Assembly: GCF_000012345.1 (NCBI RefSeq)
Contig: NC_007205.1
Span: 420,001 to 452,000 of the forward strand
DNA: 32,000 nucleotides
Reading direction: 5' to 3'
Source: Candidatus Pelagibacter ubique HTCC1062
Lineage (GTDB): Bacteria; Pseudomonadota; Alphaproteobacteria; Pelagibacterales; Pelagibacteraceae
Shown here: in pieces, positions 9,007 through 31,721 of the stretch
Numbering within the stretch: the stretch's first letter is position 1
Layout of the letters: every line of letters begins with the position of its first letter
Translations under genes and position numbers: made by a program
The notes under the pieces: model-generated
What the model saw: the letters and a program-made list of their open reading frames with translations, nothing else
Told to the model about the DNA's origin: nothing
The model's database searches: none

Positions 9007-9882
9007 ATGAAGGATATAAATATTTTTTGTTTTGGTTTTGGCCAAGTCGCAAAAAATTTTATAAAGAAGCTTAGTGTTGAGCAGTATAATATTAATTTGT
9101 CAGCAACCTCTAGAAGTGAGTCTTCAAAAAAATCATTCAACGGTATTAATTATAATAGCTATCTATTTAATAGTGAGAACTTTGATCAAAGTTTAGTTGT
9201 AAAATTAAAAGAAGCAGATCATATCTTGGTTTCTATACCACCAGAAAATCAAGAAGATTTAGTTATAAAAAATTTTTCTAAATTTATAGAAAGCTCCAAA
9301 ACAAAATGGATAACATACTTATCAGCCACTAGTATTTATGGTGATCATAAGGGAGAGTGGGTTAATGAAAATAGCAAAACAAACCCAATTTCAAATAATG
9401 GTATTGCAAGATTGAAAGCTGAAAATGCATGGTTTTCTTTAGAGAAAAATAAGAAAGTACCAATTCAGATATTTAGGTTATCTGGAATTTATTCTAATGA
9501 AAAAAATATTTTAATGCGTCTAAAATCAGGAGGCGTGAAAGTGATCAATAAAAAAAATCATTTTTTTTCTAGAATTCATGTAGATGATATTTCAAATATA
9601 TTATTTAAATCTTTATCAAAATTTAAGTCAGGAGAAATATATAATCTATCTGATGATAAACCGTCTACATCTGAAGAGGTTACTTTATTTGGAGCAAAAA
9701 TATTAAATATTGAAAATATCGAAAAAATTGAAGTTGACCAAATTAAAGGTGAGATGTTGAAAAATTTTTATAATGAGTCTAAAAAAGTTAGCAACAAAAA
9801 GATGAAAAGTTATTTTAATTATAATTTAAAATTTCCAAGCTATATCGAAGGATTAAACCATATTAGCTGTAATTTTATTTAG
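9007..9882 (+). CDS. NAD(P)-binding Rossmann-fold protein, extended SDR / epimerase-dehydratase-like
   Basis: N-terminal FGFGQVA dinucleotide-binding turn. Segments SATSIYGD...W.NE and RLSGIYS are typical of extended SDRs. Starts 1 nt after the gltB stop. Confidence 0.65.
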   Translation: MKDINIFCFGFGQVAKNFIKKLSVEQYNINLSATSRSESSKKSFNGINYNSYLFNSENFDQSLVVKLKEADHILVSIPPENQEDLVIKNFSKFIESSKTKWITYLSATSIYGDHKGEWVNENSKTNPISNNGIARLKAENAWFSLEKNKKVPIQIFRLSGIYSNEKNILMRLKSGGVKVINKKNHFFSRIHVDDISNILFKSLSKFKSGEIYNLSDDKPSTSEEVTLFGAKILNIENIEKIEVDQIKGEMLKNFYNESKKVSNKKMKSYFNYNLKFPSYIEGLNHISCNFI

Positions 9883-20215: not shown

Positions 20216-20305
20216 GGAGAGATGGCTGAGCGGTTTAAAGCGCACGCTTGGAAAGTGTGTGTACTGTTAAAGGTACCCAGGGTTCGAATCCCTGTCTCTC
20301 CGCCA
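20216..20305 (+). tRNA. tRNA-Ser (anticodon GGA), class II with long variable arm, CCA encoded
   Basis: Hand-folded. Acceptor GGAGAGA/TCTCTCC. Anticodon stem CACGC/GTGTG with loop TTGGAAA (anticodon GGA). Long variable arm with GTAC/GTAC stem. T-arm CAGGG-TTCGAAT-CCCTG. Discriminator G plus CCA. Confidence 0.9.
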
Positions 20306-23293: not shown

Positions 23294-24574
23294 ATGAAGT
23301 TTTTCGAAACTTCTAAATATTTTTCATTAAAAAAATCGACCTATATTAATCTAAGATGGATTGCTATTATTGGCCAACTTATAACAGTTAATGTTATTTA
23401 TTTTTTTTTTGATTTTAGATTTAATCTAATTCTAGAAAATTCAATAATTTTGATTGGAGCGCTAAGCAATCTTTATTTAATCTATATTAACAAAAACACA
23501 CAATTGTCAGATAAAACAGCATTTCTTTTTTTATCTATTGATATTTTACAACTGAGTTGTTTGATTTATTTAACAGGTGGAATTATAAATCCTTTTTCAA
23601 TTTTTTTGATTATCCCAGCTATATTTTCCTCATCTAATTTAGGTTTTAGGAGTAATTTATTGTTAGTTAGCCTCACAGTTTTAGTGATTATTTTTCTTAC
23701 TTTTTTTAACCAACCTTTGCCCTATCCAATTAAAGAACATTTTCACGTAGACAGCTATTATTACTATTCAATTCCAATCGCATTAATTATTGCTTTAATT
23801 TTTTTAAATTATTTTGCCTTAACCTTTGGATCAGAATCTAGAATAAGGAAAGAGGCACTGAATAAAATGGAAGAAATCATGTCAAAAGAACATGAGCTAT
23901 TATCATTAGGAGGACAGGCTGCTGCTGCTGCACATTCATTAGGTACACCGTTTTCAACAATGAAGATTATCTCCACTGATTTATTGGAGCGATTTAAAGA
24001 TAATGAAGATGTTAAAAAAGATATTGAGTTATTATCCAGTCAATTAGAGAGATGTAGTGAAATTTTAAAAAAATTAACATTAAACCCAATAATCGAAGAT
24101 AATTTTATTGATCGTGATTTAACAATGGCAGAATACGTAAGTGAAATAGTCAAGTCATTCCAAGAAGTAAGTAAAAAAGATTTTATTGTAAATTATGATC
24201 AAAATTCAAATCCACTAAATATAACTAAATCAATAGAAATTATTTATGGACTAAGAAATTTTATCGGTAATGCAAATAAGTTTTCTGAAAATAAGATTTT
24301 TATTAATATAAAAAGTGATAGTGATTTCACAGAAGTTATGATTGAAGATGATGGAGAGGGATACCCAAAAGATGTTTTGAGTAAAATTGGAGAGCCTTAT
24401 ATTAAATCTTTTAAGTCTTCAATAAAATCTAAATCTGGATTAGGTCTTGGAATTTTTATAGGCAAAACTTTACTTGAAAAAAATTATGCAAATATTTTAT
24501 GCAGAAATTCCCAAACAAGAAGTGGGGCTGAAGTAAGTATTAAATGGAAAAATGAAGATCTTTTAAAACTTTAA
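23294..24574 (+). CDS. regB: Redox-responsive sensor histidine kinase of the RegB/PrrB/ActS family
   Basis: Polytopic N-terminus carrying the RegB quinone-site heptapeptide GGIINPF (GGxxNPF). H-box [15 protein letters not shown] (His214). Cys254 lies exactly 40 residues after the phospho-His (ERCSEIL), as in the RegB redox box. C-terminal HATPase (DDGEGYP, GLGLGIF). Confidence 0.85.
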
Positions 24575-26379
24575 TGTAGTTTTTTTTTATTTTCAAATAA
24601 GCCACTCAATTGTGAAACCATAACATCCCCAAGTTCATGCACATCTGTTATTTTAATAGCTTTATTGTAATATCTAGAAACATCATGCCCAATACCGATA
24701 GCTAAAATTTCAACGTCACTCTTAGTTTCTATAAATTTAACCATTTTTTTTAAATGTTTTTCTAAAAAATCTCCTGAATTAACTGATAAAGTTGAGTCGT
24801 CAACTGGGGCACCATCTGAAATAACCATCAGTATTTTTCTTTCTTCTTTTCTTTTTATAATTCTATTATAGGCCCACGAAATAGCTTCCCCATCAATATT
24901 TTCTTTTAATAATCCTTCTTTAAGCATTAAGCCTATATTATTTTTTGCCTGCCTCCACTGTGTGTCTGCACCTTTATAAATTATATGTCTTAAATCATTT
25001 AATCTTCCAGGATTTTTTGGCTTATCATTTTTAGTCCAAGCTTCTCTGCTTTTACCACCTTTCCAATTTTTTGTAGTAAAGCCTAAAACCTCTACTTTCA
25101 CTGAGCATCTTTCTAAGGTTCTAGATAATATATCTGCACAAAGTGCAGCAATTGTTATTGGCCGACCTCTCATGGAACCAGAATTGTCTATTAACAAGGT
25201 TACGATTGTGTCCTTAAAATCAAGATCTTTTTCTTTCATAAAAGATAAAGAATTATAAGGATCCATAATTATTCTAGTTAATTTTGAGCTATCTAATAAA
25301 CCTTCTTCTAAGTCAAACTCCCAAGCTCTATTTTGTTTTGCAAGGAGCTGCCTTTGTAGTTTGTTAGCAAGCTTAGTAATTAAATCTTGAAACCCGACAA
25401 GTTGTTGGTCTAAATTTTTTCTTAATTTTTGTGTTTCTTTTATATCTTCTAATATTTCAGCTTTTGCAATTTCATCAAATTCTGTGGTGAATACTTTGTA
25501 ATCTTGATCAATATTATCAATATTTGTTTTTTGTAAAACACTTTCTGCACTCTCTTTTAAAGAATCTGAATCTTCTAATTGCTCTTCCATCTGCTGGTCG
25601 CTTAGATCAAAGCCAGCATCTAAACTAGTCTGGCTATCATCTTGATTATTTTCTTCCTCTTTGTCATCAGACTGGCCGTCATTATCGTTCTCTGATTTAT
25701 TATCTTGCTCATTTTCTTGTTCATCGTTTTCTTCATTATTTTCTTCATTATTTGAAGCAAAGACATCCATATTCTCTAAAATTTCTGAAAATTTTAAACT
25801 ATAATTATTTTGATCTTCCAAATTTTTACTTAAAAAATCAAAATGCTTATCAATAGATTCGTCAAATTCTTTCTTCCAAAAATCTAACATTTTTGTAGAC
25901 ACATCATTGAGTTCTAATTTAAAGAATTTGTTTAACATATATAATTCAAAAGCTTCATTCACAGGAACATCTTCTTTATTTTTTAATTGTTCTTTACGAT
26001 TAGAAAGTATTTTTTGGTTATAATTTTCACTTAAATTTTTTCCAACTCCTTTAAGCATTTTGCCCCCAAGAAGTTCATACCTGATTTTTTCAGCAATATT
26101 ATATAAAGATTTACAAGAAGGATTATTAGGTAGGTTTTTATTAAATATTTCTTTATTTGAAAATTTTTTCTTTAAGGCTCCAGAGTCAGTTTCTGCTCTT
26201 AGTTTAACAAAATCGTTTTTATTTGATAAATTGGTTACATCAAAAAAATCAGTTTTTTTATTACTTAAATCTTTATCTAATTTTTTAACATCTAATTTAT
26301 AATCTTCAGAAATTACTTTAGCTGTAGAAATTAATGCTTGTTTAAATTGCTCTTTAAAATTGTTTTCTTTTGAGCTCAT
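24571..26379 (-). CDS. cobT: CobT-like protein: N-terminal CobT region, acidic low-complexity linker, C-terminal von Willebrand A domain
   Basis: 602 aa. D/E/N-rich stretch [39 protein letters not shown]. vWA MIDAS motif [11 protein letters not shown] (DxSxS). The start abuts the cobS-like stop. Confidence 0.85.
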
Positions 26380-27354
26380 TTAGATATGAATATTAACCAT
26401 CGATTCTGGTAATTCTTCTCCAAAACATCTTTGATAATATTCAGCTATTGTATTTTTTTCTATATCGTCACACTTATTCAAAAAAGTGACCCTAAAAGCA
26501 TAACCTGTGTCTTTGAAAATTTCTGCATTTTCAGCCCAATGAAGTACCGTCCTTGGACTCATTACAGTTGATATATCTCCAGCTATAAAGCCCTTTCTAG
26601 TTAAAGATGCAACTTTAATCATGTTAGAGACTTTTTCTTTACCTTTTGGATTGTTTAAATTTTTATTTTTAGCAAGAACGATTTCCATTTCTCTATCAAG
26701 ACTAAGATAGTTTAAAGATGTTACAATATTCCATCTATCCATCTGCCCTTGGTTAATTTGTTGAGTACCATGGTACAATCCTGTTGTATCCCCTAGACCA
26801 ACTGTATTTGAAGTCGCAAATAATCTAAAAAATTTATTTTGTTTTATAACTTTATTTTTATCTAAAAGAGTAAAATTACCTTCAGCTTCCAACACCCTTT
26901 GAATAACAAACATCACGTCTGGTCTTCCTGCATCATACTCATCAAAAACAAGTGCAACAGGGTTTTGAATGGACCAAGGTAAAATACCTTCTTTAAACTC
27001 AGTAATCTGTTTTCCATCTTTTACAACAATTGCATCTTTTCCAATAAGATCAATTCTACTTACATGACTATCTAAATTCACTCTAATACAAGGCCAGTTT
27101 AATCTAGCTGCGATTTGTTCAATGTGAGTAGACTTTCCTGTACCATGATAGCCTTGAACCAAGACACGTTTATTAAAAGCAAAACCTGATATGATAGCAA
27201 GGGTAGTATCTCTATCAAACTTATAATTTTTATCTATTTCGGGAACGTATTCACTTCTTTTAGAGAAAGCGTCAACTTCCATATCTGAGTCAATTCCAAA
27301 ACTTTGCTTTAAAGACATTTTAATGTCTGGCTGTATGTTTAAATTAGGTGTCAA
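26380..27354 (-). CDS. cobS: CobS-like AAA+ ATPase (MoxR/chelatase class)
   Basis: Walker [10 protein letters not shown] and Walker [13 protein letters not shown]. CobS-type segments [19 protein letters not shown] and [17 protein letters not shown]. The track start at 27354 is a TTG. An alternative ATG lies at 27318 (Met13). Confidence 0.88.
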
Positions 27355-27871
27355 TTTTTTCCTTATAAGTATTTTTTAGCTGAGTATAAGCTAAAGTAAT
27401 TAATTTAAGTTTTTCTTCGTATTCTTTATTTCCCAAATTAATATCAGGGTGAAATTTTTTGACAAGAGTTTTGAACTGATCTTGTATTTGTTCCCATTTT
27501 TGGCCAACTGAAACACCTAAAATACTAAAAGCTTTAATATCATTAGCATCAAATTTGAATTGATTCATGTGGTTATATTCACCTCTAAGTTTGGTTTTAT
27601 CAAACTCATCTTTTAAAGTGTTGTTCCATAGAACTTTAAAAAAATTATCTGAAGAGCTAAAGCTCTGAGTGGGTTTATGCCAGGTCATGTCAGACTTTAA
27701 AAAATCAAATACTTGCTCATCATCCATTCCTTTAAAATAATTCCAATTTTTATTGAATTCTTTAACATGAGCTAAGCAAAGCAATCTGTAGCGTTTGCTA
27801 TTATCTTTCTCAATTGGTGCCTTATATTCACCAGTATCAAAGCAATTATTCCAATCACAAATATTTTTCAT
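27344..27871 (-). CDS. J-domain protein with an N-terminal Cys/His-rich region
   Basis: C-terminal J domain [30 protein letters not shown] (HPD tripeptide). N-terminus has C5-x4-C10 ... C32-x2-H35. 175 aa. Confidence 0.8.
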
Positions 27872-27896
27872 GCTATATAGTAATAAATTATTATTT

Positions 27897-28157
27897 ATGA
27901 ATATAAACGAATTAATTAAAATTGTTAAAAATAAACTTGAAGCAAAAATTGTTATACAAGATCTTAAAATCGAAGATAAAAGTTTTTTACATAAAAATCA
28001 TAAAGGAAATCAAGAAGGAATGTTCCATCTAAAATTAATTATTAAATCTGAAGAGCTTAAAAAATTAAATAAGATAGTATCAACCAAGAAAATCTATAAT
28101 ATTTTAGATCATGAGTTAAAAGAACACATACATTCTATTCAAATACTACTTAGTTAA
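27897..28157 (+). CDS. bolA: BolA-family protein
   Basis: 86 aa from the ATG at 27897 (MNINELIK...). BolA-like core DKSFLHKNHKG...FHLKLIIKSEEL...KIYNIL...IHSIQI. The upstream 34 codons of the track ORF overlap the J-domain gene start and look non-coding. Confidence 0.75.
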   Translation: MNINELIKIVKNKLEAKIVIQDLKIEDKSFLHKNHKGNQEGMFHLKLIIKSEELKKLNKIVSTKKIYNILDHELKEHIHSIQILLS

Positions 28158-29252
28158 TTCTTTTTTTAAAAAGAGATTAATAGTTTTTTCATTAAACTGT
28201 AATTTGTAAACTGGAGAACCTATTCTTTTAAGCAAAACCAGACTAATTTTCTTTGTATTATTTTTTTTATCTTTTCTCATAAAAGATATAATTGTATTTA
28301 AATTTTTTATTGAAAAAAATTTATTAATATCTCTTGGAAGATTTAGGTCATTTAAGTGACCATCAATTAATTCAAATTCTTTTTTATTTAAAATTTTATT
28401 TAATAAACTAAATCTAGCAGCAGTTTTAACACCGAGGATAACTGCTTCACCATGATTTAATTTTGCTGAATAACGCAGTGTTGCTTCAAAGGCATGAGCA
28501 AAAGTATGTCCAAAGTTTAGTATTTTTCTTATACCTAATTCTTTTTCGTCAGCTTCAACTACTTTTTTTTTAATCAAGCAGCTTTGATGAATAGCTGTTT
28601 GTATAAAGGGACTTTTTAATTGGATAATTTTTTTTCCATTTTTATTTAAAAAGTAAAAAAATTTTTTTCCATTAATAAGTGAGTGTTTTAAAATTTCACC
28701 ATAGCCACATACAACTTCTCTTTTTGGTAAAGAGTTTAAAAAGTTAGTATCTGATATAACTAGACTAGGTTGATAAAATGAGCCAATTAAGTTTTTACCA
28801 TATTTGGTGTTTACACCTGTTTTGCCTCCGATTGATGAGTCGACCTGTGAAAGTAGTGTAGTTGGTATATTTACAAACTTTAAGCCTCGCTTAAAAGTAC
28901 TTGCTGCAAAGCCTGATACATCACCGGTAATACCACCACCAATAGAAATTAAACAATCATTTCTATTAAAACTTTTTTTTAAAAGAATTGATGTGATTTC
29001 ATTGACACTTTTTAGATTTTTATTTTTTTCACTCGCATTAAAATAATGAATTGAAACAGATCCTTTTGGTAAAGATTTTAAAGTATCTTTTACTAAATTT
29101 TTTGGAATATTTTTGTCAATTACTAGAAGACATTGATTAAAATCAATAGAATTTTCTTTCAAAAATTTATTTACTTTTTTTAAAATATTATTTCCAATAA
29201 TAATTGAATATTGTTGACTGTTGGTGTTAACTTTTAATTTAATTAAGCCCAT
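28146..29252 (-). CDS. aroB: 3-dehydroquinate synthase
   Basis: GGGITGDVSGFAASTFKRGLKFVNIPTTLLSQVDSSIGGKTGVN (NAD/glycine-rich loop) and metal-binding GHTFAHAFE...NHGEAV. Confidence 0.95.
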   Translation of the reverse strand: MGLIKLKVNTNSQQYSIIIGNNILKKVNKFLKENSIDFNQCLLVIDKNIPKNLVKDTLKSLPKGSVSIHYFNASEKNKNLKSVNEITSILLKKSFNRNDCLISIGGGITGDVSGFAASTFKRGLKFVNIPTTLLSQVDSSIGGKTGVNTKYGKNLIGSFYQPSLVISDTNFLNSLPKREVVCGYGEILKHSLINGKKFFYFLNKNGKKIIQLKSPFIQTAIHQSCLIKKKVVEADEKELGIRKILNFGHTFAHAFEATLRYSAKLNHGEAVILGVKTAARFSLLNKILNKKEFELIDGHLNDLNLPRDINKFFSIKNLNTIISFMRKDKKNNTKKISLVLLKRIGSPVYKLQFNEKTINLFLKKELTK

Positions 29253-29809: not shown

Positions 29810-29986
29810 ATGCAATTTTCAAAAAACACAAGTAATGGGAGTGGTAAAAGTTTATTAATCAAAATAGTATTTGTGCTAATTATTTTTATTGGAGCCATAG
29901 TACTACTTGGTAAAATTGAATTTCCATCTCCAAATAAAGACATTGAAAAAATCATCCCTAATGAAAAACTTAAAATTGTTAAGTAA
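29810..29986 (+). CDS. Candidate 58-aa single-pass membrane protein (below the ORF-track cutoff)
   Basis: Hand translation gives MQFSKNTSNGSGKSLLIKIVFVLIIFIGAIVLLGKIEFPSPNKDIEKIIPNEKLKIVK with one clean hydrophobic helix. It fills an otherwise empty 209-bp gap. It overlaps the next gene's likely start by 26 nt in another frame. Confidence 0.35.
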   Translation: MQFSKNTSNGSGKSLLIKIVFVLIIFIGAIVLLGKIEFPSPNKDIEKIIPNEKLKIVK

Positions 29987-31721
29987 GAACTATTTTTTAG
30001 TTATATTATTTTCTTTATTTTTTGGTTTTGCAACCAACTCACAAGAACCAGTGGATATCTGGGAAGTGGGAGAAAAAAAACCTAAAGAAAACTTAATCTT
30101 AACAGAAGATGAATTAGAAAAAAATATTCCCCAGAATAGTATTTATGATATGCAATCCCAAAAAGAAGGGGAATTAAGCATAGAAGAAACGCAAACTTTA
30201 ATTTCAAAAGAAAAAAAATTAATCGGAATTTATGACCCTGCAGAAAATGGGTTGGATATTAATATGTGGTCCAATTCTAACGGAGATCAAATTTTAAATA
30301 TCTTTAAAAGAATAGATAAATTGGAACTTTCAAGAGATGCTGAAGAGATTTTGGATGTTTTATTATTAACAAATGCACATTATCCAGAAATGAATATTTC
30401 AAAAGAACAGTTTTTAGAAATTAAATCAAAGTGGCTTATTAAGCGCTCAAACTTTGACTTGATTGAAAAATATTTATTAAATAATGAGATTATTAATGAA
30501 CATCCAAAACTTACCAAACACTTAGTAGATCATTATTTGTCTCAATCAGATGTTGAAAAAGCTTGTGAAATTTTTTCTAAAATTAATGAACCGATACAAG
30601 ATTTATATTTATCTAAATTCAACATTTATTGCTTAATTAATAATAATAAAAGAGATGAAGCTCAATTGCTTATCGATCTTCAATTAGAATTAGGCATTGC
30701 AGATAAGTTTTTTAATAAAAAAATTGATTATTTAATGGGGTATAATACAGAACCAGCAACAGAAGTTTCAGAAAAAACAATTTTAGATTTCCATTTATCT
30801 CACAGAACGAACCCAGAATTTAAATTTGAACCAAAAAATACTACATCCAGGCAAATATGGAAATATCTATCAACTTCAAATCTATTAGATGATATCAGTG
30901 ATATTGAACTTACAGATATAGAGAAAATTACGAGTATTGAAAAAGCAACACATGAAGGAAATTATGCAGAAAAAGAATTATTTGAACTTTATAAGAGATT
31001 TCAATTTAATATTAATCAATTATTAAATATTAAAGAGTCAACAAAAGTACTCTCAAGAATAGAGACAAGAGCGCTAATTTATCAAGGAATTTTAATTACT
31101 ACTGAAATTGAGAATAAGTTACAGTTAATGAATGCCCTCAAAAATTCTTTCAAGAATGACGGTATTGAGAATGCATTTAACATAGAATTAAAAAATTTTT
31201 TAAAAAATATAGAAGAGAACAAGGTGCCTTCAAATTTTACAACATTTTATCAAGATAATTTAGGTAATGAAGAGACAGAACAAGCAAATATTAAAATAAA
31301 TAATAAAATTTTACATCAATCAAAATTAATAAATTATTTAAAATTAGAAAAATCTAAAAATGATCCCACAAAAGATATAAATGATTTCTTAAAAAAGATA
31401 AAAAAAGATAAAAAATATTTTTTTTCTAAAAAAGATGTAATTTTAGTTGAGACCTTTAAGTCCGATGGTGTCAAGATTTTAGAGAAGTATGATGATTTAT
31501 ACCAAATAAACGATTCAGAAATACCTTCTGATATTCAAATATTTGTTAACAGTGGTGATATGGCTGCTGCATTGCTTAGAATTGTTGAGGTTATAGGGCA
31601 GGACAGCTTAAATGCTATTGATGAAGATACGTTATACTTTATTATAAGCACACTTAATCAGCTAAATGCGGATCCACTAAGAAATAAAATACTCTTTAAA
31701 GTTCTTCCTTTAAAAGTTTAA
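29961..31721 (+). CDS. Secreted/periplasmic protein of unknown function (587 aa from the preferred start)
   Basis: Long uninterrupted ORF. The ATG at 29961 gives a Sec-type signal peptide MKNLKLLSKNYFLVILFSLFFGFATNSQ with no lipobox Cys. I recognise no catalytic motif. Confidence 0.7.
   Translation: MKNLKLLSKNYFLVILFSLFFGFATNSQEPVDIWEVGEKKPKENLILTEDELEKNIPQNSIYDMQSQKEGELSIEETQTLISKEKKLIGIYDPAENGLDINMWSNSNGDQILNIFKRIDKLELSRDAEEILDVLLLTNAHYPEMNISKEQFLEIKSKWLIKRSNFDLIEKYLLNNEIINEHPKLTKHLVDHYLSQSDVEKACEIFSKINEPIQDLYLSKFNIYCLINNNKRDEAQLLIDLQLELGIADKFFNKKIDYLMGYNTEPATEVSEKTILDFHLSHRTNPEFKFEPKNTTSRQIWKYLSTSNLLDDISDIELTDIEKITSIEKATHEGNYAEKELFELYKRFQFNINQLLNIKESTKVLSRIETRALIYQGILITTEIENKLQLMNALKNSFKNDGIENAFNIELKNFLKNIEENKVPSNFTTFYQDNLGNEETEQANIKINNKILHQSKLINYLKLEKSKNDPTKDINDFLKKIKKDKKYFFSKKDVILVETFKSDGVKILEKYDDLYQINDSEIPSDIQIFVNSGDMAAALLRIVEVIGQDSLNAIDEDTLYFIISTLNQLNADPLRNKILFKVLPLKV

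Follow-up and report, generated by a model that had tools for sequence, protein, structure and literature searches.

CobS-CobT machines and the SAR11 locus

The closest described system to the locus reported here is the aerobic (class I) cobaltochelatase, CobN-CobS-CobT, of Brucella melitensis and Pseudomonas denitrificans. Structures of B. melitensis CobS and CobT with CobN (the CobSTN holoenzyme), reported in 2026, show CobS as a six-subunit AAA+ ring into which the CobT shaft inserts, with the shaft and the VWA domain, which carries a MIDAS (metal ion-dependent adhesion site), lying close to CobN (bioRxiv 10.64898/2026.07.21.739949). The same combination of a six-subunit AAA_5/CbbQ_C-type ring and one VWA/MIDAS adaptor is seen in the MoxR-type pairs NorQ-NorD, CbbQ-CbbO, RavA-ViaA and CoxD-CoxE, a parallel also noted by those who solved the CobSTN structure (bioRxiv 10.64898/2026.07.21.739949). 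We analyzed a 32,000-nucleotide stretch of the SAR11 bacterium Candidatus Pelagibacter ubique HTCC1062 (NC_007205.1, positions 420,001 to 452,000; hereafter the window), in which cobS and cobT follow the gene for a J-domain protein (the J-protein) and a bolA gene is transcribed divergently from the three. This bolA/J-cobS-cobT arrangement appears to be an ancestral alphaproteobacterial core locus, of which the window holds the SAR11 copy. The best explanation overall, to which we give about an even chance of being right, is that CobS-CobT acts here on a client other than CobN and is coupled to DnaK by the J-protein.

The initial annotation had proposed four open reading frames (ORFs) for this locus, all of which are present where it placed them:

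24571-26379, minus strand: cobT, 602-aa adaptor subunit (ORF call and Pfam)
26380-27354, minus strand: cobS, 324-aa AAA+ motor subunit, TTG start at 27354
27344-27871, minus strand: J-protein gene, 175 aa, 11-nt overlap with cobS; uncharacterised alphaproteobacterial family
27662-27871, minus strand: J-protein N-terminal domain, residues 1-70 (alignments and AlphaFold2 (AF2) model)
27563-27613, minus strand: J-protein disordered linker, residues 87-103 (AF2 predicted local distance difference test (pLDDT); Asp88 motif)
27353-27547, minus strand: J-protein C-terminal J domain, residues 109-173 (Pfam, Foldseek; HPD at nt 27443-27451)
27872-27896, no strand: 25-bp spacer separating the divergent J and bolA genes (read from sequence)
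27897-28157, plus strand: bolA, 86 aa; J-linked BolA paralogue of the histidine-type class, 'bolA1' in Zymomonas

The motifs quoted in that annotation can be read in the translations, including HPD at nt 27443-27451 and C5-x4-C10 ... C32-x2-H35, and the sequence bears out both the abutting cobS stop and cobT start (gap of 0) and the 25-bp spacer between the J gene and bolA. Two starts had been offered for cobS, TTG at 27354 and ATG at 27318, and a comparison of 36 SAR11 loci retains the former and discards the latter. Met13, which the ATG would encode, is replaced by I, V or L elsewhere in SAR11, residues 1-12 are conserved as protein, and the equivalent upstream position is an ATG in other SAR11 subclades; TTG 27354 is therefore the cobS start. 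The CobS_N domain, which begins at CobS residue 5, is consistent with this choice. It follows that the J gene and cobS overlap by 11 nt, and in most SAR11 loci the overlap is 4-17 nt. The J gene, cobS and cobT are translationally coupled in the window. Promoter-like hexamers over both coding starts of the J/bolA pair were not in excess (18 versus 22.6 expected in shuffles), and promoter and terminator scans likewise gave nothing beyond shuffles.

Labels such as 'CobS-like' and 'CobT-like', used at first for these proteins, are too loose. CobS matches the full length of B. melitensis CobS (9ujv) with 515 bits, and CobT matches B. melitensis CobT (9uka) with 538 bits over residues 9-598. Judged by these alignments, CobS is a true orthologue of the motor, and CobT of the adaptor, in the bona fide aerobic cobaltochelatase. 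CobS scores 575.6 bits against the NCBIfam model TIGR01650 (cut-off 558.55), carries CobS_N and AAA_5 (3.7e-11) Pfam matches with Walker A GTGKS and Walker B DEYD, and also matches CbbQ and NorQ structures. CobT matches Pfam CobT_C (5.7e-96) and CobT (2.2e-39); its 639 bits against TIGR01651 lie below the cut-off of 759. From N to C terminus it comprises the CobT domain, a disordered acidic linker of ~90 aa, a 'shaft' and a VWA domain whose MIDAS motif is DNSGSM. Identity to Brucella is ~75% across the VWA domain, its conserved MIDAS residues (DNSGSM, with a further N and D) and the conserved shaft, and the N-domain is far more diverged (53.8 bits over 200 residues). No J-CobS fusion was found among the longer CobS homologues, whose extensions are phage-type N-terminal domains or chimeras.

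The window proteins thus have Walker A/B, the CobS_N motif, the shaft and the MIDAS in common with the aerobic cobaltochelatase, and there too cobST is unlinked from cobN. The differences lie in the company the genes keep. Neither a J-protein nor BolA is part of the published enzyme, and no CobN or corrin pathway is found in SAR11 (from the literature) or in the Zymomonas gene table. The window locus also lacks the cobalamin-riboswitch control typical of cob operons: in the window and 5 further loci, Rfam at its gathering threshold detected tRNAs alone and no cobalamin riboswitch. As the initial annotation had stated, there is no cobN or other cobalamin gene in the window, where Pfam, NCBIfam and ORF annotation match cobS and cobT as the only cob genes.

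An AAA_5/CbbQ-type ATPase adjoining a VWA protein with an intact MIDAS is the mark of a MoxR-type pair, and CobS and CobT have this arrangement. Known clients of such pairs are encoded nearby (nitric oxide reductase, Rubisco, carbon monoxide dehydrogenase), whereas none is encoded near the window locus. Further, no dedicated J-domain partner of a MoxR-type pair appears in the searchable literature, unlike the situation here. Phage 'cobS/cobT' genes (cyanophages, pelagiphages and CRP-810-type roseophages) are likewise AAA+/VWA pairs without CobN, even in B12-incapable hosts, but most phage CobS proteins are only 24-34% identical to window CobS and are distant paralogues, and in the viral contig examined there is no J-protein or BolA alongside.

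Conservation of the block and the B12 status of its hosts

To survey the neighbourhood, species-representative genomes were scanned with a CobS alignment, which yielded 36 loci from SAR11 and 44 from other species (43 labelled alphaproteobacterial). The latter include Rhodospirillales, Thalassospira, Magnetovibrio, Kiloniellaceae, Sneathiellales, Emcibacter, Hyphomicrobiales (Rhizobium, Rhodoplanes), Rhodobacterales and Geminicoccaceae. ORFs of each locus were searched with the window proteins and then with hidden Markov models (HMMs) built from the matches.

Conservation of the J/cobS/cobT/bolA adjacency across Alphaproteobacteria was a test set beforehand, and the outcome was positive. Immediately upstream of cobS stands the J gene in 37/42 non-SAR11 species (in 3 more it is within 3.5 kb) and in 34/34 SAR11 loci; cobT lies directly downstream of cobS in 34/37 and 34/35, respectively. 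bolA is divergent beside the J gene in ~29/37 non-SAR11 species, after correction of over-extended ORFs, and in 34/34 SAR11 loci. By comparison, regB and gyrB, which flank the locus in the window, are conserved in 0 non-SAR11 loci. In three loci genes stand between cobS and cobT, and these are mutually unrelated. The Rickettsiales-labelled genomes, from the order named as a test case, gave the opposite result, with cobS not beside cobT, the J gene or bolA.

No cobN was found within 10 kb on either side in any of the 80 loci. ORFs of at least 850 aa in these loci were checked as CobN candidates and proved to be histidine kinases, Suv3-like helicases and aminopeptidase N. The Suv3-like DEXQ-box helicase, of ~1,100 aa, lies 3-5 kb downstream of cobT in Hyphomicrobiales loci (L051 10349-13684; L057 14894-18241; L076 15987-19259). 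The only recurrent neighbours across the 80 loci are aroK/aroB, a CBS-domain protein, rpmB and a phytase-like protein.

To our knowledge, the 1.3-Mb SAR11 genomes lack the ~20-gene corrin pathway. The literature, in agreement with the initial annotation, describes SAR11 as genomically B12-auxotrophic and so unable to make cobalamin (PMC9296465). The cluster is not specific to genomes without B12 synthesis: the block is pan-alphaproteobacterial and present in B12 producers too. The gene order of Rhodobacter sphaeroides from transposon-insertion sequencing (Tn-seq) is RSP_1976 cobT, RSP_1977 cobS, RSP_1978 'DnaJ family' and RSP_1979 BolA; in this species cobS and cobT count among the essential genes, as do cobN (RSP_2827) and the corrin genes. 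Since the same locus occurs in B12 producers, adjacency alone is no proof of a non-B12 role.

Support for a B12-independent role comes instead from retention in the non-producers SAR11 and Zymomonas. In Zymomonas mobilis, with fewer than 2,000 genes, a single transcription unit has been mapped for ZMO1543 cobT, ZMO1544 cobS and ZMO1545 J, and bolA1 is found at a distance of three genes; neither cobN nor any precorrin, cobyrinic or cobyric gene appears in the gene table. Each of the four genes has an orthologue in every one of the seven 'Tractable Alphas' and in Zymomonas; among the seven alphaproteobacteria cobT is essential in 2, cobS in 3, J in 1 and bolA1 in 0 (PMC10746277, Table S2). Within SAR11 Ia, nonsynonymous divergence (dN) is 0.04-0.13 for CobS and 0.10-0.16 for the J-protein, next to 0.09-0.10 for GyrB and 0.28-0.40 for AroB/AroK; selection was measured by dN only, as dS is saturated (>1) and dN/dS unreliable. 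These low values, with CobS slower-evolving than GyrB, place cobS and the J gene among the most constrained genes in the window; lineages that do not synthesize B12 maintain the locus under strong purifying selection. The CobN-independent role first suggested for the locus therefore keeps its footing in retention by non-producers and loses its argument from adjacency, since the locus is also found in producers.

The J-protein, BolA and the proposed mechanism

The J-protein is a class C Hsp40, with an HPD J domain but without a G/F region or CxxCxGxG zinc-finger repeats, and its Pfam DnaJ match (3.2e-11) is confined to residues 115-170. Its homologues number more than 7,000; all that carry an organism name are alphaproteobacterial, and their sole annotation is 'J domain-containing protein'. 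Family alignments were made with 20 sequences and with 124 sequences (A3). The N-terminal C-x4-C...C-x2-H pattern noticed at the outset is genuine: C5, C10, C32, H35 and N40 are invariant in the 124 sequences, as are H141, P142 and D143 of HPD. The N-domain signature is C-[DE]-x-P-G-C ... R-A-P ... W-F-C-L-[DE]-H-V-R-E-Y-N-x-x-W. A linker aspartate, Asp88, does not vary in alignment A2 and is shared by 113/124 sequences in A3; its motif is D-E-F in the window and D-P-F-G-[VI]-[FL] in the family consensus.

The HMM and structure prediction proposed for the N-terminus was run, and it returned a confident AF2 fold with no Pfam or PDB counterpart. The full model (pLDDT 80) runs from a confident N-domain through a disordered linker (residues 87-103, pLDDT <50) to the J domain at the C terminus. 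The N-domain (pLDDT ~90) is modeled with a Cys knuckle, a beta-hairpin at residues 16-31 and a helix at 33-42 that starts with C32/H35, and from this model we would read it as treble-clef-like. With the full protein Foldseek matched only DnaJ J domains, at TM-scores up to 0.73; the N-domain alone had no PDB fold match better than E=3 and no Pfam match at E<=10. Identification of the protein as full-length DnaJ, CbpA or DjlA was rejected, the curated models scoring far below their cut-offs.

HscB/Jac1, which works with HscA/Ssq1, and Grx-BolA Fe-S trafficking offer another comparison, as the window likewise has a small class C J-protein with HPD and a Cys/His metal-type motif, encoded beside BolA. 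However, in HscB/Jac1 the J domain comes first and the helical HscB domain makes up the C terminus, whereas the window protein has its J domain at the C terminus and no HscB domain. With the domain order reversed and no match to an HscB model in NCBIfam or Pfam, an HscB/Jac1 identity was rejected. BolA itself is well supported (Pfam 1.3e-11; 45 bits versus a cut-off of 25.7), and among solved structures it is nearest to Arabidopsis BolA1 and the Arabidopsis SufE1-BolA domain, with the C-terminal His aligned. Alphaproteobacteria have two BolA paralogues. In R. sphaeroides the other one, RSP_2952 (in the RSP_2951-2953 region), adjoins purL and a glutaredoxin gene, and in Z. mobilis bolA2 (ZMO1874) has an aerobic fitness defect, with no phenotype for the J-linked bolA1. 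The Fe-S analogy drawn in the initial annotation has no direct support, there being no HscB signature and the BolA being the paralogue that does not adjoin glutaredoxin; an Fe-S role for the J-linked BolA is thus no more than possible.

We propose a model where, in genomes that do not synthesize B12, CobS-CobT would work without CobN. The CobS hexamer and CobT would form an ATP-driven motor for remodelling of, or metal insertion into, a client other than CobN, following the motor-adaptor-effector logic of NorQ-NorD, CbbQ-CbbO and RavA-ViaA. The HPD J domain of the J-protein may bring DnaK (Hsp70) to the motor or to the motor's client, and its CCCH N-domain and invariant linker Asp motif may serve in docking or metal binding. 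It is tempting to speculate that the linker Asp completes the CobT MIDAS or resembles the DnaJ DIF motif, and that the CCCH site holds Zn or Fe/Fe-S. In B12 producers, CobN would use the same CobS-CobT motor additionally. BolA1 enters the proposal as a conserved neighbour, with no assigned part. A fuller version holds that J-CobS-CobT, perhaps together with BolA1, forms an AAA+/VWA machine that is ancestral to Alphaproteobacteria, is coupled to Hsp70 and has a CobN-independent client, that cobaltochelatase is one of at least two uses, and that the J CCCH/Asp motif docks on the CobT MIDAS or carries a metal. We offer it tentatively, as possible but with more reason to doubt than to expect that it holds in every part.

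A good deal weighs against a J-coupled motor with its own client. The R. sphaeroides J gene, RSP_1978, takes 50 insertions in 636 bp and bolA is tolerant too; with J and bolA dispensable while cobS and cobT are essential, J and BolA are unneeded for cobalt chelation, and J is not an obligatory partner of the CobS-CobT motor. In Z. mobilis, CRISPR interference (CRISPRi) of cobT, cobS, J and bolA1 gave log2 fold changes of -0.02 to -0.12 and no growth phenotype, and any second function would therefore be conditional there. No client candidate emerged among the conserved neighbours in the 80 loci. The block can also come apart or lack members: Paracoccus keeps the bolA-J pair with cobST not adjacent, a gammaproteobacterial metagenome-assembled genome (MAG) has cobS-cobT without J or bolA, and in Rickettsiales-labelled genomes cobS stands alone beside der. 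In a viral contig (IMG/VR UViG_3300027867_000003; L090 9251-12288) a CobS 53% identical to window CobS, with an N-terminal extension of ~250 aa, is followed by a 446-aa CobT that has the acidic linker, shaft and VWA domain but no N-terminal domain, and neither J nor BolA is there. Finally, the statement that SAR11 lacks CobN and the corrin pathway genome-wide rests on the literature, with no whole-genome scan behind the absence of cobN.

Two of these groups need a further word. The Rickettsiales-labelled sequences are MAGs and endosymbiont contigs (L084-L089) in which cobS directly follows der (engA), near hemB, hemN and FTR1, with no cobT, J or bolA within 6-8 kb of cobS; a 460-aa Peptidase_M48 gene nearby was considered as cobT and rejected, being unrelated to CobT. 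The CobS homologues P0129 and P0140 resemble the viral-contig type.

Many of the same observations would fit synteny inherited without shared function, in which an ancestral gene order persists and the J-protein and BolA belong to unrelated processes. Where cobS and cobT are essential, J and bolA are not; the gammaproteobacterial MAG and the virus have cobST without J; and the pieces part in Paracoccus, in the Rickettsiales-labelled genomes, and in Loktanella and two other loci, where the J/cobS/cobT block is also split. Further, aroK-aroB and rpmB accompany the block in many species too. Yet the J-cobS adjacency (37/42) is conserved as well as that of cobS-cobT (34/37) and far above other flanks, the genes share a strand with overlapping stop and start codons and a mapped single transcript in Zymomonas, and the named members of the J family are all from Alphaproteobacteria, the class that has this cobST arrangement. 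We regard an inherited gene order without shared function as rather unlikely, though it deserves serious attention. An ordinary cobaltochelatase, with cobN and the aerobic corrin pathway elsewhere in the genome and the locus serving B12 synthesis, would account for the orthology of CobS and CobT to bona fide subunits, and R. sphaeroides does use the same locus with cobN RSP_2827. Nor does the distance from cobN argue against it, as cobST is never beside cobN even in species expected to make B12. It is made very improbable by the B12 auxotrophy described from SAR11 genomes (PMC9296465), by the lack of a riboswitch and by Zymomonas, which keeps the locus with no cobN or corrin genes listed.

CobS-CobT might instead serve another tetrapyrrole or corrinoid reaction (salvage, remodelling or dechelation) with a large subunit that is not CobN-like in sequence. 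CobN homologues act as heme dechelatases (bioRxiv 10.64898/2026.07.21.739949), the VWA/MIDAS domain and shaft that lie near CobN in the holoenzyme are ~75% identical to Brucella, and cobS is near hemB and hemN in the Rickettsiales-labelled genomes. No neighbourhood, however, holds a candidate large subunit, and the CobT N-domain is much less conserved; we consider such a reaction improbable. An anti-phage defence or mobile module around the AAA+ ATPase was suggested by weak CobS matches to IetA/IteA (PADLOC 1.6e-06; NCBIfam 24 bits versus a 510-bit cut-off) and by the cobS/cobT-like pairs that phages carry. Those matches span the P-loop region only, base composition is not atypical, and in every SAR11 genome examined the locus belongs to the stable core genome and is strongly constrained by purifying selection, a distribution that effectively refutes a defence reading. 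A CobN-independent motor coupled to DnaK by the J-protein remains the explanation we favour.

Remaining window and significance

The rest of the window consists of housekeeping genes: sucB, gltBD, thrS, infC, rplT, pheST, lepA, gyrB, regB and aroKB. Overlaps of the kind found in streamlined genomes are frequent around the locus, with regB and cobT convergent and sharing 4 nt (24571-24574), bolA and aroB convergent and sharing 12 nt (28146-28157), and aroB and aroK on the same strand with an overlap of 14 nt (29239-29252). A 604-aa ORF at 29907-31721 (plus strand) has a signal-like N-terminus and no Pfam match; it lies upstream of aroK in 34/36 SAR11 loci, and weakly similar ORFs occupy that place in 6 other alphaproteobacterial loci. 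Directly 3' of gltB, a 291-aa ORF at 9007-9882 (plus strand) matches no Pfam family at E<=1e-5, and a tRNA gene at 20216-20302 (plus strand) lies between lepA and an FkbM-type methyltransferase gene.

The families to which the parts of this locus belong are known; what is new is their combination, their retention without CobN and the unmodelled CCCH domain. No link between either the J-protein or BolA and CobS/CobT, or any MoxR-type motor, was found in the searchable literature. Although it comprises more than 7,000 proteins that share a conserved CCCH domain, the J-protein family lacks a Pfam model for that domain and an assigned function.

Beyond the locus itself, cobS and cobT are routinely counted as markers of B12 synthesis in genomes and ocean metagenomes. 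SAR11, among the most abundant ocean bacteria, carries both without making B12, and such marker counts are therefore inflated. The locus is a testable lead for functional genomics. A dedicated J-protein, if true, would be the first Hsp70 link to a MoxR-type AAA+/VWA motor. A second CobS-CobT client, if true, would explain the retention of these genes in streamlined genomes, the constant separation of cobST from cobN and the presence of cobS/cobT-like pairs in phages of B12 auxotrophs.

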